From sequence record OP172785: a DNA stretch of 64,000 nucleotides; one strand, given 5' to 3'. Origin of the DNA: Escherichia phage ECO07P2. Position 1 is the first letter of the stretch. Each line of letters starts with the position of its first letter. The notes below the pieces were generated by a model. The model did not search any database. It was not told where the DNA came from and was given only the letters and a program-made list of their open reading frames with translations. Shown here piece by piece: positions 66-19,740 of the stretch. The translations under genes and the position numbers were made by a program.

Positions 66-368
66 CTAAAAGAAACTTCTTTCACAATTTTTTCCACTGA
101 ACCATGCGCTTACCGCTTTCTTAGTCTCAGGAGCAGTATTATCCATAAACCATTCAAAGGCAGCCTTTTTATGATTCTGGAGGGCTTCTCGGGCTTTAAT
201 CTGCTCACGGTCTATTAACACTAACATATGAGCCTTTCTTGTCACCATGGGCTTCTTATGATTTTTTGAATACTCCCAGTCATTTGTCCATCGCATTGTC
301 GTTGCGAATTGAAATACAGCTTCTTTAATCTTAGTTTCGTAAATTTCACGAGCCTTTGAGTATAACAT
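66..368 (-). CDS. hypothetical protein (about 101 aa)
   Basis: ORF in track; second Met at 368 is preceded by GGAGG Shine-Dalgarno so start placed there; no recognisable motif. Confidence 0.5.
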   Translation of the reverse strand: MLYSKAREIYETKIKEAVFQFATTMRWTNDWEYSKNHKKPMVTRKAHMLVLIDREQIKAREALQNHKKAAFEWFMDNTAPETKKAVSAWFSGKNCERSFF

Positions 369-469
369 CACTACCTCCATTCACCAGTTTAATTCTAGTC
401 ATCTTTTTAATGGCAGTCCATATAATCTATTTCTGAACTGCCTTTTTGTCATAGAAGTCCTCTTATGAA

Positions 470-1438
470 TTATTTCAGAAGAGTAACCTCAGCAATTTCT
501 TCCCAACCGTTTTTGTCGGTCATAATAAAGTCAGCAAGATAAAGAGCAGTACGCAGTGAAACATTGCGTAAACGATTAACATTGACTTTCATCCATGATA
601 ATGCTTTATAAGTTTCTTCATCAGAAAGACCGCGCTTTTGCATCATGTCGGTTGAAAGAATAACATCTTCAACCCTGACCATAATTTCTTCATTAGTGTG
701 AACACCCAAATCCAAATAAACTGAGCGGGACACTAATGCTTGTAAGTGTGGGGCAAGTTTAGTACCACGGTCTAATTCGCGGTCAATGTCAACGTTTGTG
801 ATAAAAACAATCGTTCCTTTAAATTCAAACTCACGGTCAATGCCTTTTTCTTCTAAGTAAGAAGATGCAGTGCTCCAGCAGACTTTACGGGTCTCTCCGG
901 TGTCCAGAGCAGCTTTTAGAAGATTAAGAATGTCCATATCAGAGAAAACATCCACATCATCAATCAAAAGGACAGAGTTCTCTTCACGATTATTCCAAAG
1001 CTGCTCATAAAGACCAATACCAGAGATTTTACCATTAATGCTTTTATATTCAATGTATCCATTATCATTTGCTTTATTTAAAGCTTTATCTAAAGAATAC
1101 GTTTTACCAATACCTGCTGCGCCAGAGATAATTAATGAACGAATATTTCCATTAATAATACCATTCGTCATCATTCCCATAACATTAAATCTTTTATTAA
1201 TGCGGGTTTTCATATCTTCATATGATTCTTTAACTTCTTCAACTTTTACACCATCATATGAAATATCTGATTTGTAAACCCAAACACCGCGACGTTTACC
1301 GTCAATTTCAACAAAAACTTTACCATCTCCTTGTGCATCTACCGGAGCATTATCTGGGAACCATTCGCCTAAGAGCTCAAAAGTTCCAGAGATTTCTTTA
1401 CCAAAGTAGATACCCTTATTGATAGTTACAGTTTTCAT
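470..1438 (-). CDS. P-loop ATPase, AAA-like (Walker A GAAGIGKT, Walker B LLIDDVD)
   Basis: ORF 322 aa from ATG at 1438 (track start at 1450 is a TTG); Walker A and B motifs read directly in translation; preceded by GGAGAA SD and early promoter. Confidence 0.7.
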   Translation of the reverse strand: MKTVTINKGIYFGKEISGTFELLGEWFPDNAPVDAQGDGKVFVEIDGKRRGVWVYKSDISYDGVKVEEVKESYEDMKTRINKRFNVMGMMTNGIINGNIRSLIISGAAGIGKTYSLDKALNKANDNGYIEYKSINGKISGIGLYEQLWNNREENSVLLIDDVDVFSDMDILNLLKAALDTGETRKVCWSTASSYLEEKGIDREFEFKGTIVFITNVDIDRELDRGTKLAPHLQALVSRSVYLDLGVHTNEEIMVRVEDVILSTDMMQKRGLSDEETYKALSWMKVNVNRLRNVSLRTALYLADFIMTDKNGWEEIAEVTLLK

Positions 1439-1475
1439 TTTATTCTCCAAATCTGTATCAGTAGTTGATAGTTGT

Positions 1476-1505
1476 ATAGTACCATAAAGCTTTATGCTTG
1501 TAAAC
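1476..1505 (-). promoter_or_regulatory. T4-type early promoter
   Basis: gtaaac 1500-1505, atagta 1476-1481, spacer 18, conserved downstream agtagttgatagttg block; upstream of ATPase gene. Confidence 0.65.
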
Positions 1506-1530
1506 AGTTTTGTGAAAAAATTTTTGAAAT

Positions 1531-1558
1531 AAAAAAAGGGGACCTCTAGGGCCCCCTT
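1531..1558 (-). terminator. rho-independent terminator (minus strand)
   Basis: minus-strand RNA GGGGGCC-CUAGA-GGUCCCC followed by U7; lies just after stop of ORF 1568-2053. Confidence 0.65.
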
Positions 1559-1567
1559 TGTGTTGAT

Positions 1568-2053
1568 TTATTCCATTTCTACTATATGCATGTTCTTTTT
1601 GCTATCAAAATATATGTTTTTAACTATTAACTCAGAATTAATTGGCAGTAAAAACTCTCTTTCATAATCTACCATACAAAGATTATCATAAAGCTTGTTA
1701 AGCTTATCATCGTCAGTTTGGCCAGATTCTTCAATTGCGATTAAATTTTCTAAAATGTCAATCATAGCAGTCGAATAGTCGAAAACGTTTGCATTTTTTA
1801 ACACTACTAAAACATTAGTCATATAGCGTTCTGCTGCAAACGTTTCAGCTATATGAGACTCACTGCTAAAGGAAGTTATTCTTTTAAATTTGATTCTCCT
1901 ATTAACTTCAAACTTATAAGATAGCACTTCCTCTATTGTAAGTCCTCTAAAAAGTATGTCTTTAATCTCAAGTTTGTCTTTAATGTAATCATTAACACGC
2001 TTATGATTAAAATCATTAATTTTGTTGCCAAGGCATTGCATTAAAATATGCAT
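1568..2053 (-). CDS. hypothetical protein (161 aa)
   Basis: ORF in track, tight packing with neighbours; no motif recognised. Confidence 0.55.
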   Translation of the reverse strand: MHILMQCLGNKINDFNHKRVNDYIKDKLEIKDILFRGLTIEEVLSYKFEVNRRIKFKRITSFSSESHIAETFAAERYMTNVLVVLKNANVFDYSTAMIDILENLIAIEESGQTDDDKLNKLYDNLCMVDYEREFLLPINSELIVKNIYFDSKKNMHIVEME

Positions 2054-2150
2054 TGTATTCTCCTCAATTTTTAAAGAGCAATTAATTAACTACACATATA
2101 TTATAATATGCTTTGCGATAGAAGTAAACAACTTTGTGACGTCATTTTAA

Positions 2151-2177
2151 ACAAAAAAGGGAGCCCGAAGGCTCCCT
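2151..2177 (-). terminator. rho-independent terminator with UUCG tetraloop (minus strand)
   Basis: minus-strand RNA GGGAGCC-UUCG-GGCUCCC followed by U6, immediately after stop of nucleotidyltransferase ORF. Confidence 0.7.
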
Positions 2178-2178
2178 A

Positions 2179-3189
2179 TCATTTATAATAACTTCGGTGG
2201 TTTTCAAGATAAACCCTCTCAAGGAAGTCATCCCAGAAACCCATGTCTACTTTTTGCTGCATACCGTTCTTAGAAGCTTCAATGGATGCTGCTTCTACTT
2301 GATCGACCACATCTTCCAAAAACTCTTGAACAGTTTTAAATGGATGTTTACCCAACTTCACGTCGAGAATAAATGGAGCATCTTGAAGTGGATAAACCAA
2401 GTCACCAGTTTTGTAAATTTCCAATAGTTGGAGTCCACCACGACAAGCATGACTCAGAGCTTTCCAGTCAATGCCCTCATTCGCTTCAGCCTTACGAGCA
2501 CGTTCGCCGTATTCAGCATCAAGTTTATTCAAAGACTGCTTAAGCTCAATAAGAGAAAGTGTTGTCTGATATTTACGACCCAACACAGTGTAAAACGTTT
2601 GTGGACCTGTTTTCTCATGATTATGGAACACCCATTCACAGAACTCGTTTTCTGGAAGACGATGCTTAATATCTTCAACTTTAGTGCGACGCTGCTTAAT
2701 GGAACCGTCTTCTTGGTAATCAACCCACTGATCAGGGATTTGATTAACTACTTTCAATACATCACGTAATGCGGCCAAACGAGAACCCTTGACACCATAT
2801 TTAGAAGCTTGCTTGCGGACATATCCTAAATAAGATTTCATGTTAGTTGTATAAAAACGAGAACGATTGTCTTGGATAAATTTCCATACATCAGGTAAAT
2901 CAGATTTAACCACTAGTTCAGGTGGAGTGTGGAGCATATCCAATGCTACAGTTTCACCATCTGCAGCTAATTTAAAGAAATACTTAAGACTGTATAGTTC
3001 ATGGTCAATATCATCTTTAGTGTTTTTAGATGATGTGTTGTTCGTGTTTTTACTCATATGCTCTTTAACATTTCCGATAAGAATATCGCGAGCAGGAGGA
3101 ACAAAGATTTCTTTAAAATCTACATCAGATTCTGGAGTAGAAGTTCCATAAAGATGACTACCAAAATAGCTTTTCATTACTGTTTTCAT
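2179..3189 (-). CDS. Pol-beta superfamily minimal nucleotidyltransferase-like protein (GS-x3-GT-x4-SDVD motif)
   Basis: 336 aa ORF; N-terminal FGSHLYGTSTPESDVDF matches the GS...[DE]x[DE] nucleotidyltransferase signature; long helical C-terminal region; family assignment by motif only. Confidence 0.6.
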   Translation of the reverse strand: MKTVMKSYFGSHLYGTSTPESDVDFKEIFVPPARDILIGNVKEHMSKNTNNTSSKNTKDDIDHELYSLKYFFKLAADGETVALDMLHTPPELVVKSDLPDVWKFIQDNRSRFYTTNMKSYLGYVRKQASKYGVKGSRLAALRDVLKVVNQIPDQWVDYQEDGSIKQRRTKVEDIKHRLPENEFCEWVFHNHEKTGPQTFYTVLGRKYQTTLSLIELKQSLNKLDAEYGERARKAEANEGIDWKALSHACRGGLQLLEIYKTGDLVYPLQDAPFILDVKLGKHPFKTVQEFLEDVVDQVEAASIEASKNGMQQKVDMGFWDDFLERVYLENHRSYYK

Positions 3190-3650
3190 TATTCAGCCTT
3201 ATATTCAATAACAGGACATACTTTAGCTTTACGCGCTTTTAAAAATTCGACGATAATAGATTTCTTTGGTTGAATAGGAGGTAAACCTTTATACGCCCTA
3301 TCAATATTTTCTACATGTAAAGCATAATCCTTTTTCCATTTATAATCTTTATATTTTTCATGCAGTTGTGCAGGAATAACAAATGAACCAATAATAAGTA
3401 AAACAAGCAAAATAGCAAGTATAAATGCTGATGGAATAAGAGTCCATAAACTACCAAAAATAAGCCATTTCTGCATAATTTCTGCGCAGATGATAGTTAG
3501 ACCTGCGAGTATAGTACATCCGAAAAAAGAAACGAAAAATGTAGGAATAACAATAGACCAAAAATACGCGCACAGTGTCTTAGGTCGTTTCCATTCATCA
3601 TTAAACATTTTGAATAATTTATAGTGCCAAGAGTTTTCATTAATAATCAT
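3189..3650 (-). CDS. membrane protein (predicted transmembrane helices)
   Basis: 153 aa ORF with two long hydrophobic stretches (FWSIVIPTFFVSFFGCTILAGLTIICA and WTLIPSAFILAILLVLLIIGSFVIP). Confidence 0.6.
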   Translation of the reverse strand: MIINENSWHYKLFKMFNDEWKRPKTLCAYFWSIVIPTFFVSFFGCTILAGLTIICAEIMQKWLIFGSLWTLIPSAFILAILLVLLIIGSFVIPAQLHEKYKDYKWKKDYALHVENIDRAYKGLPPIQPKKSIIVEFLKARKAKVCPVIEYKAE

Positions 3651-3652
3651 AA

Positions 3653-4174
3653 TTATCCTTTCATTGAAGGTGTAACAGTTGTTAAATACTTAATCATAGC
3701 TTCAGCTTCTGATTTTGATAATGAAATTTCTCCATTGTTTTGACGAATAGAAATAAAATCCGGATGACGGTCACCACCAGCTTTTAAAACACACATATAA
3801 GTATCAGTTTCATCTTCAATATTTGAAATAATTGAAGCAGTTCCGCATGAATGCGGTTTTTGATAAATCAATACGGCTTTTCTTCCACCGTTTGACTGTT
3901 CATAAACTTTTAACACATCAAACAAATCACTTCTTTTATCAATAGCTAAGATGTTGTTTTCATCTTCAATGTTAAATCCTTCGGATACTTCATAAAGTGT
4001 CACCCATAAATCACCTATATCGATAGTAGCATTTTCCTTTCCATGACTTTCAAGAGTATGACAAATTTTCTTGATTTCGTCATAACTCATTTTAATAATA
4101 TCATCTCCTTGAATAAGGAAGATGTCATTTTTAAATTCAATACGAATTAAACCACTTTCACTCGAAATAAACAT
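3653..4174 (-). CDS. hypothetical protein, paralog of adjacent ORF 4182-4739
   Basis: 173 aa; shares GFNIE(D/S)E and C-terminal (A/E)xxK(T/Y)YL(D/T)(S/T)V(I/T)P(T/S)M with neighbour. Confidence 0.6.
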   Translation of the reverse strand: MFISSESGLIRIEFKNDIFLIQGDDIIKMSYDEIKKICHTLESHGKENATIDIGDLWVTLYEVSEGFNIEDENNILAIDKRSDLFDVLKVYEQSNGGRKAVLIYQKPHSCGTASIISNIEDETDTYMCVLKAGGDRHPDFISIRQNNGEISLSKSEAEAMIKYLTTVTPSMKG

Positions 4175-9979: not shown

Positions 9980-10245
9980 TAATATTTTTCCTCTGGTTGG
10001 AACACAGCACGACAAGCCCACATACTGGCTTCTTTGAGTTTCGTTTTAGCAATAGTTAACTGATCGAGGCTTTCAGCATAATTCTTCGCGAATTCACAGT
10101 CTTCACAATTATCTAGTGCTTCCCAGAATTCGTCATATAAAGCATCAAAGATAAGTCCTAAACGAACTTCAGCATCTTTGATAGCATTCACTTTACCGAT
10201 TTTCTCTTCAGTATGTGGTTTATAACCTTTAATGTCTTCAATCAT
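9979..10245 (-). CDS. hypothetical protein (88 aa)
   Basis: ORF in track, ATG start, coupled to neighbours. Confidence 0.5.
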
Positions 10246-10459
10246 ATTCTACTTCCTCACCAGTACATAAATCATATTCAACTAAACGAATAGGTTCATG
10301 AATGCCATATCCTTGAACAGAAATTTCTGTCGTAGGATAAATTCCACTAATATCACCCATGTTCCACGCTTCATTAAATTGTTGTTCGCCTGAATTACTA
10401 AACCATTCGGCGAAAGCATTTAGCACATCTTTAGAACCTTCAATAATTATTTTTGCCAT
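10238..10459 (-). CDS. hypothetical protein (73 aa)
   Basis: ORF in track, ATG start. Confidence 0.5.
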   Translation of the reverse strand: MAKIIIEGSKDVLNAFAEWFSNSGEQQFNEAWNMGDISGIYPTTEISVQGYGIHEPIRLVEYDLCTGEEVEYD

Positions 10460-10821
10460 TACAAGCTCTCAGTAAAGGTACGAGCGATAACGTCGCGCTG
10501 CTGTTCCGGAGTCAGAGAGTTAAAGCGAACTGCATAACCGGATACACGGATGGTCAGCTGCGGATATTTTTCCGGATGCTTAACTGCATCTTCCAGAGTT
10601 TCACGACGCAAAACGTTTACGTTCAGGTGTTGACCACCTTCAATTTTAACCGTAGGCTGTGGTTCAATTTCAATTTCACGGGCATGCAAACCGTAGAAAA
10701 TTTCCGGATCTACAAAAGAGTCCTCTTTAAAGGTTTTAGAGACAATAATTCGTGCTTGAATACCATCTTCAAAATAAATAGTACCTTTATGTGTGCCTTC
10801 AAGAATTTGATATGCTTTCAT
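10459..10821 (-). CDS. grcA: autonomous glycyl radical cofactor (GrcA/YfiD-like; T4 Y06I-type)
   Basis: 120 aa; C-terminal [61 protein letters not shown] is essentially the E. coli GrcA glycyl-radical motif (RVSGY). Confidence 0.9.
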
Positions 10822-10827
10822 ATAACC

Positions 10828-11157
10828 TCAATTAGAAAATAAATTTATCCAAGATTGTTCTTTAATTAAAAATGGCTCAGAATCATATGCCATTAAACTT
10901 TGGGTGATTAGTCCTTTAAAAGGCCCATCAATAAATTCCATGGTAAAATATGGAATTTTATTCATTAATCTTGCATTAGGAGCAGTGCACAAAACTCTGC
11001 ATCCTTTGAATACGCCTTTTTGTAATTTGTATTGCTTAGGATAAAATTCGCTCAAGACGTTGTTATTTGCCAAAATTTCAAAATGATTCACCAATTTATT
11101 TTTAATAGTTTTTGGCGAAAAATAAAGATATTCGAAAAGTTGCGTATCTGTCATCAT
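10828..11157 (-). CDS. hypothetical protein (about 109 aa)
   Basis: start moved to ATG at 11157/11154 in an ATGATGA overlap with upstream stop. Confidence 0.45.
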   Translation of the reverse strand: MMTDTQLFEYLYFSPKTIKNKLVNHFEILANNNVLSEFYPKQYKLQKGVFKGCRVLCTAPNARLMNKIPYFTMEFIDGPFKGLITQSLMAYDSEPFLIKEQSWINLFSN

Positions 11158-11691
11158 TGCATTCCGATTACGAAAAACTGTGGACGAGTAATACCACCAG
11201 TACAGCATTTACTATTGCAGCAGTGTTGCACAGTTTCAATATGAATATCGTAAATTTTATCCATATCAGGAGATTTAACAGGCTCATCGATTATATACAA
11301 AATTCGAGAAAGCGATAAACCTCTGAACTTGCTACCTCTATTACCAACAAAACTACGGACAGAATCAGTAAATAAGCGGAATCGAATATCATCATTAGAA
11401 TAACGCGAAAATTCTTTTTTAATGTGGCCCGCAGAAATTTTAGCGTAAGCTGAAGTATTAGAAAGAACAATAACTGTTCCACCATCATACAGCCAATTAG
11501 CAGCAAAGTTAGTCACAGCAGTTGATTTACCAGATTGACGTCCACCATCTAGTCGAAGTGTGCAATACTGCTTAAGTAAGTCTTCAAATGGTGGGATATA
11601 ATCGTTTTTACAAATTTCTTCTACTCTAGCATCAGAATGGTGTGTAAAAGCATTCATCAGGGATAGATAAGGACCAGTTAAAAATGTTCTC
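11154..11691 (-). CDS. small P-loop NTPase-like protein
   Basis: about 179 aa from ATG 11691; Walker A-like GGRQSGKST and hydrophobic-DE stretch ILYIIDEP. Confidence 0.5.
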
Positions 11692-11727
11692 ATTTTATTC
11701 TCTCTAAATTTGGGCCATTCCATGGCG

Positions 11728-11762
11728 CATGAATTGTCCATTTCTGTATTTACCCATTACCG
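11728..11762 (-). repeat. copy 1 of a 35-bp conserved intergenic element (second copy at 12374-12408)
   Basis: 33/35 identity between the two copies; both sit 40-90 nt upstream of minus-strand gene starts. Confidence 0.6.
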
Positions 11763-18718: not shown

Positions 18719-18794
18719 TGGTCGAGGCAGTAGGGATCGAACCTACGACCTAGGACTTAGAAGGTCCTTGCTCTTCCTTCTGAGCTATGCCCCG
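18719..18794 (-). tRNA. tRNA-Arg (anticodon UCU), CCA encoded
   Basis: hand-folded cloverleaf on minus strand; anticodon loop CUUCUAA; GGTTCGATCC T-arm. Confidence 0.8.
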
Positions 18795-18798
18795 TAAT

Positions 18799-18874
18799 TG
18801 GGGTGACCGATGGGAGTCGAACCCATGACTACGAGAATCACAATCTCGAGTTCTACCAACTGAACTACGGCCAC
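18799..18874 (-). tRNA. tRNA-His (anticodon GUG) with extra 5-prime G
   Basis: anticodon arm CGAGA-UUGUGAU-UCUCG; G-1 pairs with C73; T-arm GGGTTCGACTCCC. Confidence 0.7.
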
Positions 18875-18988
18875 ATTAATATCTACTCCAACAATCAAGA
18901 TGTCTTCACACGAAATTAAGAGAAGAGTGATCAGTTCAACCCCGATAATCGCGTCAAGTAGATATTAATGTGACAGTTGTCACAAATT

Positions 18989-19063
18989 TGGCGGACGTGA
19001 TAGGATTCGAACCTATAACCAATCGCTTAACAGGCGATCGCTCTGCCATTGAGCTACACATCC
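18989..19063 (-). tRNA. tRNA-Asn (anticodon GUU)
   Basis: anticodon arm ATCGC-CUGUUAA-GCGAT; T-arm ATAGG-TTCGAAT-CCTAT. Confidence 0.7.
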
Positions 19064-19067
19064 AAAT

Positions 19068-19154
19068 TGGTGGGGAGTGATGGAGTCGAACCACCCGAGT
19101 CGCAATGACAATGGATTTACAGTCCACACCGCTACCTCTACGGGATAACTCCCC
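19068..19154 (-). tRNA. tRNA-Tyr (anticodon GUA), long variable arm
   Basis: acceptor GGGGAGT/ACTCCCC; anticodon loop CUGUAAA; class II length 87 nt. Confidence 0.65.
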
Positions 19155-19167
19155 TTAATTCTTAATT

Positions 19168-19242
19168 TGGTGGCCCTGGGTGGAATTGAACCACCATCTG
19201 GCGATTATGAGTCGCTTGCTTGAACCTTCCAGCTACAGGGCC
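19168..19242 (-). tRNA. tRNA with CAU anticodon (T4 tRNA-Ile-like; Met by anticodon alone)
   Basis: anticodon loop CUCAUAA; adjacent to tRNA-Thr as the T4 Thr-Ile pair. Confidence 0.65.
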
Positions 19243-19243
19243 T

Positions 19244-19319
19244 TGGTGCTGATTGACGGAATCGAACCGCCGACCTTCTCATTACAAGTGAGTTGCTCTA
19301 CCTACTGAGCTAAATCAGC
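19244..19319 (-). tRNA. tRNA-Thr (anticodon UGU)
   Basis: acceptor GCTGATT/AATCAGC; anticodon loop CUUGUAA; T-arm GGCGG-TTCGATT-CCGTC. Confidence 0.75.
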
Positions 19320-19324
19320 AAAAC

Positions 19325-19414
19325 TGGCGGAGGCGATAGGATTTGAACCTATGAGTCGCCGGAGCGACTGCCGGTTTTCAAGACCGGTGCATTAAACCAC
19401 TCTGCCACGCCTCC
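19325..19414 (-). tRNA. tRNA-Ser (anticodon UGA), long variable arm
   Basis: anticodon arm CCGGT-CUUGAAA-ACCGG; 90 nt class II. Confidence 0.75.
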
Positions 19415-19416
19415 AG

Positions 19417-19490
19417 TCTCCATACAAGGATTTGAACCTTGGACCTCCTGATCCCAAATCAGGCGCTCTACCAAACTGAGCTACACGGAG
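19417..19490 (-). tRNA. tRNA-Pro (anticodon UGG), CCA not encoded
   Basis: anticodon arm CCTGA-UUUGGGA-TCAGG; only 2 nt from tRNA-Ser 5-prime end (dimeric precursor as in T4). Confidence 0.75.
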
Positions 19491-19500
19491 TAAATTAAAT

Positions 19501-19574
<74 letters not shown>

Positions 19575-19579
19575 AAATT

Positions 19580-19666
19580 TGGTGCGAGAAGTGGGACTCG
19601 AACCCACAAGGAAATCATTCCGCAGCATTTTAAGTGCTGTGCCTTTACCAATTTGACCATTCTCGC
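19580..19666 (-). tRNA. tRNA-Leu (anticodon UAA), long variable arm
   Basis: anticodon arm CAGCA-CUUAAAA-TGCTG; 87 nt. Confidence 0.75.
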
Positions 19667-19667
19667 G

Positions 19668-19740
19668 CTGGGAATAAAGGACTCGAACCTTTGCATCCTG
19701 GAATCAAAATCCAGTGCCTTACCAACTTGGCTAATTCCCA
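19668..19740 (-). tRNA. tRNA-Gln (anticodon UUG), CCA not encoded
   Basis: acceptor TGGGAAT/ATTCCCA; anticodon arm CTGGA-UUUUGAU-TCCAG; 1 nt from tRNA-Leu (Gln-Leu dimeric precursor). Confidence 0.75.

Follow-up and report, generated by a model that had tools for sequence, protein, structure and literature searches.

A small open reading frame of Escherichia phage ECO07P2 (OP172785) encodes a protein whose C-terminal part resembles the E. coli protein GrcA (YfiD), raising the question of whether the phage carries a piece of a host gene or a GrcA-type gene of its own, and what such a protein would do in infection. A sequence-only reading of this locus had proposed a captured host module placed behind a phage-specific N-terminus, which could restore oxygen-cleaved pyruvate formate-lyase (PFL) or support the phage anaerobic ribonucleotide reductase (RNR). 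We analysed the locus within the whole 64,000-nucleotide stretch of phage DNA (hereafter the window). In the list of open reading frames of the window, the frame was found at exactly 10459..10821 of the minus strand, running from ATG to TAA and encoding 120 amino acids.

The nature of the gene was evident from comparison with other phages. By megablast against phage genomes the gene matched 756 records, nearly all from Tevenvirinae, and a 100% nucleotide match was obtained for one record, Escherichia phage ECO07P3, a Tequatrovirus. The source phage of the window is also a Tequatrovirus. Several of the matched records label the gene as vs.6 or call it 'autonomous glycyl radical cofactor GrcA', and the RefSeq annotation of the T4 vs.6 protein (NP_049730) is GrcA. 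UniProt and the biochemical papers on this T4 protein call it Y06I. The alignments to E. coli GrcA and T4 Y06I that had been suggested for checking the assignment gave consistent results: the window protein was identical to NP_049730 at 119 of 120 residues, and shared 74 identities over 100 aligned residues with E. coli GrcA (BLASTP, E 3e-52; the GrcA reference was taken from a RefSeq chromosome, on which the gene is located between ung and eamB). The sole amino acid difference from T4 lies at residue 73, which is His in T4 and Arg in the window protein, as in E. coli GrcA; besides this, the two phage genes differ by a few synonymous changes. The T4 gene also has the same length, the same position and the same surrounding string, the order vs.8, vs.7, vs.6, vs.5, vs.4, vs.3, regB, vs.1 and vs of the T4 reference genome being retained in the window, and the portion from vs.8 to regB is co-directional and tightly packed in both. 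These observations altogether leave little doubt that the frame is the Tequatrovirus vs.6 (Y06I) gene, whose product is a phage-encoded, GrcA/YfiD-like autonomous glycyl radical cofactor. As the sequence-only reading had itself named T4 Y06I, the present identification recovers a gene that was already known.

The junctions of the gene with its neighbours and the segments discussed below are listed in Table 1. The vs.5 homolog downstream (10238-10459, minus strand) encodes 73 amino acids, and the annotated T4 vs.5, which starts at the same junction, encodes 58; the C-terminal region of vs.5 differs between the window phage and its close relative T4. The vs.8 homolog (11154-11741, minus strand, 195 amino acids) belongs to phrog_1488, a family of unknown function, and carries a Walker-A-like motif, GGRQSGKST; its weak match to the ATPase region of the terminase large subunit (phrog_2, E 3.7e-6) suggests a P-loop NTPase. 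An antisense frame opposite vs.6 (10453..10842, plus strand, 129 amino acids) was set aside as a mechanical open reading frame facing a conserved gene. Between 9000 and 13000, promoter-like sites were not above the chance level (11 found, 12.8 expected from shuffled sequences), and 3 terminator-like sites were found for 2.3 expected from shuffles.

Table 1. Features of the vs.6 locus in positions of the window
Feature	Position	Strand	Basis
vs.6 / Y06I coding sequence, autonomous glycyl radical cofactor (phage GrcA), 120 aa (very probable)	10459..10821	-	ORF, T4 identity, Pfam, TIGR04365, PDB 6OWR
N-terminal half of phage type (residues 1 to ~59), a diverged homolog of the GrcA N-half	10644..10821	-	Drop in nucleotide identity and hhalign
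Putatively host-derived 3' tract with the coding sequence of the glycyl radical domain, codons ~60-120 plus stop, corresponding to nt 200-384 of E. coli grcA	10459..10643	-	blastn, tree, GC
GGT codon of Gly95 in RVSGY, predicted radical-bearing glycine	10537..10539	-	phmmer alignment and sequence
GAGG Shine-Dalgarno sequence, 4 nt before the vs.6 ATG; shares bases with the TGA stop of the vs.7 homolog	10826..10829	-	Read from sequence
TAATG, vs.6 TAA stop overlapping the ATG of the vs.5 homolog	10457-10461	-	Read from sequence

The C-terminal half is a glycyl radical domain indistinguishable from that of the host protein. The claim that the last 60 residues are GrcA-like held in full, since residues 61-120 were identical to E. 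coli GrcA at 60 of 60 positions by BLASTP, the RVSGY motif included. The only Pfam domain detected in the protein was Gly_radical, at residues 61-101 (66.8 bits, cutoff 22.2, E 2.8e-18). In the phmmer search of PDB, the best match was YfiD (6OWR, E 8.6e-42), followed by the PFL C-terminus (E 5e-26). Phage residues 22-120 were aligned to YfiD 28-127 with one gap and residues 58-120 to PFL 697-759, thereby placing Gly95 of RVSGY on YfiD Gly102 and on PFL Gly734 (PDB 1H16), respectively; the glycine expected to bear the radical is thus present on careful alignment, as had been anticipated. Among NCBIfam models, TIGR04365 (GrcA) was the best match by a wide lead over other families (153.3 bits, E 3.7e-45, residues 20-120), and this score stays below the equivalog cutoff of 170 bits, the one formal sign of membership that the protein lacks, because its N-terminal half is diverged. 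One variant of the domain was noted in Escherichia phage Nami (Tequatrovirus, locus 221-583), of which the allele encodes GQHLHV in place of GQHLNV and LTSRVSGY in place of LTIRVSGY, the radical domain being otherwise invariant; these non-synonymous changes are either genuine variants beside the radical glycine or sequencing errors.

The overall layout, a small stand-alone protein of 120 residues in which a PFL-type glycyl radical domain follows a short N-terminal region, is that of GrcA. The host protein (P68066, 6OWR, TIGR04365) is likewise a stand-alone protein of about 14 kDa, and the phage radical domain is 100% identical to that in its solved structure. The two differ in the N-terminal half, which in the phage is about 29-35% identical, 7 residues shorter and without the host N-terminal form, and in genetic location, the host gene lying in ung-grcA-eamB and the phage gene in an early/middle gene string. 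The alignment to the C-terminal domain of PflB (about 697-759; PDB 1H16, 2PFL) is end-to-end, but the phage protein has neither the 10-stranded barrel nor the catalytic Cys418/Cys419 of PflB, and has no catalytic capacity by itself. The radical domains of GrcA2 and GrcA3 (NF008341 and NF038360) are aligned over phage residues 60-120 (E 7e-27 and 6e-31, respectively); these proteins are, however, only about 78-80 residues long with nearly no N-terminal extension, and the phage protein scores far below the cutoffs of both families.

The N-terminal half had been considered phage-specific. This view is only partly right. The sequence is of a phage type, conserved among T4-like genera, but the match to the TIGR04365 model reaches into this half as far as residue 20, and the pairwise alignments to YfiD by phmmer and BLASTP reach residue 22. 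We then compared a profile of 12 phage N-halves with a profile of non-redundant bacterial N-halves from 81 loci, both cut just before GGQHLNV. Over 59 columns hhalign aligned the two profiles at 29% identity with a probability of 97.1% (E 7.2e-11), indicating that this half is homologous to the GrcA N-half. Since homology extends to the N-half in this profile comparison, the whole gene is a GrcA homolog with an anciently diverged N-half, and not a radical domain fused to a foreign sequence. The picture of a captured host module joined to an unrelated N-terminus thus needs correction; the 3' half of the gene holds a tract of recent Escherichia DNA, as described below.

At the DNA level the gene is a mosaic with a sharp internal boundary. 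By blastn, nt 179-363 of the gene (10643-10459) matched grcA with up to 98.4% identity (E 3e-84) in all 5426 of 5426 complete E. coli genomes, the match falling at the grcA locus every time; chance cannot account for such a similarity. Over nt 179-353, a single mismatch to E. coli grcA was found and it is synonymous; the outermost few nucleotides at both ends of the segment are in phage-type states common to other T4-like phages. Immediately upstream of the tract, identity to E. coli grcA drops at once to about 45-50%, and on the other side the tract ends at the stop codon. For comparison, over the same 183 nt E. coli grcA itself differs by 8% from that of Citrobacter amalonaticus and by 15% from that of Salmonella. 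Base composition changes along with identity, the 3' half showing a GC content of 0.49 and GC3 of 0.44, and the 5' half 0.35 and 0.22, in a window with a GC content of 0.36. In a megablast search of the whole window against the 5,426 complete genomes, the grcA tract (10455-10643 in this search) was the sole part of the 64 kb present in every E. coli chromosome, and the region 25001-64000 gave no match in any of these genomes.

The same mosaic is shared by related phages. In a neighbour-joining tree, the 3' segments of Tequatrovirus and Mosigvirus clustered with Escherichia grcA with 97% bootstrap support, and their identity to E. coli grcA was 93-98%. Between the two genera, the 5' halves were 87-90% identical and the 3' halves 92-98%. 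The most economical explanation for this pattern is a recent homologous recombination from host to phage, by which E. coli grcA DNA would have overwritten about 175-185 nt of an older, full-length phage gene, namely its radical-domain half, in the common ancestor of Tequatrovirus and Mosigvirus or later. The direction from host to phage is the parsimonious one, since in Enterobacterales grcA keeps its synteny and is passed on vertically, and since the tract has the composition of host DNA.

A wider possibility, which we put forward tentatively, is that repeated recombination with chromosomal grcA keeps the radical domain in line with whichever host is current, so that the phage would track its host through gene conversion, while the N-half evolves with the phage lineage. 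The robust part of this scheme is the Escherichia event only, and its recurrence in other hosts is suggestive. The 3' halves of Klebsiella phages (Jiaodavirus and Slopekvirus) and of Krischvirus encode 'ETLLDAVEH', which is typical of GrcA from Klebsiella, Raoultella and Salmonella, in place of 'ETLEDAVKH' of E. coli. Compared with the bacterial grcA genes sampled, they reached a nucleotide identity of only 80-87%, the sample consisting of one genome per species and including no K. pneumoniae grcA among the top 80 loci. As the best identity for the Klebsiella phages was 85-87% in this sample without K. pneumoniae, recent conversion in these phages is unsupported.

Carriage of the gene is not restricted to T4-like coliphages. 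By tblastn, intact homologs were detected in 1,588 phage records, including Tevenvirinae, other Straboviridae (Aeromonas phages among them), T5-like Demerecviridae, and jumbo phages of Yersinia, Salmonella and Serratia. Its neighbourhood varies: the grcA-like gene is placed within the vs/regB string in T4-like coliphages and inside a tRNA cluster in two unrelated phages, T5-like phage HildyBeyeler (locus 2501-2869) and Aeromonas phage Riv-10 (locus 2992-3360). The window has a tRNA cluster of its own, about 8 kb from vs.6 (18719-19740, minus strand), with 11 genes, for Arg, His, Asn, Tyr, Met/Ile-CAT, Thr, Ser, Pro, Gly, Leu and Gln; T4 has fewer tRNA genes, namely 8. The region of its tRNA-Tyr (19065-19158) shared 90.5% identity with a tRNA-Tyr of NZ_CP077546.1, the record of a 101-kb E. 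coli plasmid that may be a phage-plasmid, and about 260 records matched this region at 80-90%.

What the protein does can be predicted from its two closest characterised relatives. According to the account in PMC8683613 of the work by Wagner et al. (2001; pmid 11444864), two proteins of about 14 kDa, YfiD of E. coli and Y06I of T4, act as 'spare parts': the PFL activating enzyme installs a glycyl radical on them and, in complex with oxygen-cleaved PFL, they restore PFL activity in vitro. The two are the only validated spare-part proteins (PMC8683613), and the same study is also cited in a 2026 review of glycyl radical enzymes (PMC13450708). The suggestion that the window protein could restore oxygen-cleaved PFL agrees with this published biochemistry of Y06I, and rescue of PFL is its best-supported function, as predicted from the 99% identity to T4 Y06I and from a radical domain 100% identical to that of YfiD.

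The following course of events, which in vitro work has established for YfiD and Y06I, is predicted for the window protein from its 99% identity to the latter. Oxygen would attack the Gly734 radical of host PFL, leading to cleavage of the C-terminal radical domain. On the phage protein, the host radical-SAM activase PflA (PFL-AE) would remove a hydrogen from the glycine of the RVSGY loop, Gly95, and the protein activated in this way would dock into truncated PFL in place of the lost domain, so that the conversion of pyruvate to acetyl-CoA and formate could resume. In T4-type infection, host gene expression is shut off and host DNA is degraded; damaged PFL would therefore not be resynthesised. 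A spare part made by the phage may thus sustain the supply of fermentative ATP, acetyl-CoA and formate in the micro-oxic gut, a benefit deduced from the proposed mechanism.

A takeover or decoy role is a rival reading. The phage protein might compete with host PFL or GrcA for PflA, or occupy PFL, and so redirect or damp fermentation. Such a role is conceivable in view of the distinct and conserved phage N-half, which could alter regulation or binding. We consider it very improbable, since the radical domain, with the RVSGY glycine, is kept identical to the functional one of the host, and since the in vitro work on T4 Y06I described in PMC8683613 reports restoration of PFL and not inhibition.

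Support for the phage anaerobic RNR, the other role proposed in the sequence-only reading, has to be divided into a direct and an indirect form. In the direct form, phage NrdD that has lost its C-terminal glycyl radical domain to oxygen would receive the small protein as a substitute, perhaps once NrdG has activated it. A role in nucleotide metabolism was speculated by Nolan et al. (2006; PMC1524935), and in Aeromonas phage PX29 (locus 359-3947) the gene order is nrdD-nrdG-vs.6-nrdC-nrdH with the start of vs.6 sharing 23 nt with the end of nrdG, an adjacency of grcA and nrdG that was also found in a second Aeromonas phage, phiWae14. This synteny is, however, explained equally well by an 'anaerobic module' in which PFL would give formate to NrdD. 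Furthermore, the last 149 residues of T4 NrdD, taken from the 3' exon of its gene, which include RRTCGYLG and a Cys-rich stretch known as a Zn-binding domain (PMC4493059), showed no similarity to the phage protein by BLASTP (best E 20), indicating that the C-terminal Zn-ribbon and RxCGY radical loop that mark the NrdD type are not shared, and the radical domain is that of GrcA at every position and close to PFL 697-759. The genomic setting also argues against direct service to NrdD: T4 nrdD and nrdG are located about 17 kb from vs.6, and would fall outside the window if gene order is collinear, and the T5-like and other Aeromonas phages carry the gene in tRNA clusters, not beside nrd genes. 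The direct form is thus very improbable. The indirect form is plausible, because class III RNRs, T4 NrdD included, use formate as the reductant (PMC4493059) and PFL is where the cell obtains its formate; rescue of PFL would then link the phage protein to anaerobic dNTP synthesis by supplying NrdD with formate.

That the gene is a functionless passenger, a scrap of host DNA gained by chance and carried neutrally, is hardly credible and is effectively refuted by conservation: its 3' tract is host-like in GC and near-identical to host DNA, but the frame is intact, the limits of the tract match those of the conserved domain and the stop codon, the tract differs from E. coli by synonymous changes, intact homologs occur in several phage families, and the gene is one of only 11 open reading frames of unknown function that Nolan et al. 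(2006; PMC1524935), who noted its Gly_radical match, recovered from every T4-like genome in their comparison.

The sharply bounded tract identical to Escherichia DNA, with the host-to-phage recombination that it implies, is the sole element for which we found no earlier description in the open-access literature, and it represents a modest evolutionary curiosity. In a phage that destroys host DNA, a host-like tract of about 185 nt offers a clean natural case of homologous recombination from host to phage, and the mosaic may serve as a marker of host association. No in vivo phenotype of a vs.6 deletion was found in the literature. The more general significance of vs.6 lies in rescue of PFL, by which it would represent an auxiliary metabolic gene of enteric phages, protecting an oxygen-sensitive enzyme of the host during infection.
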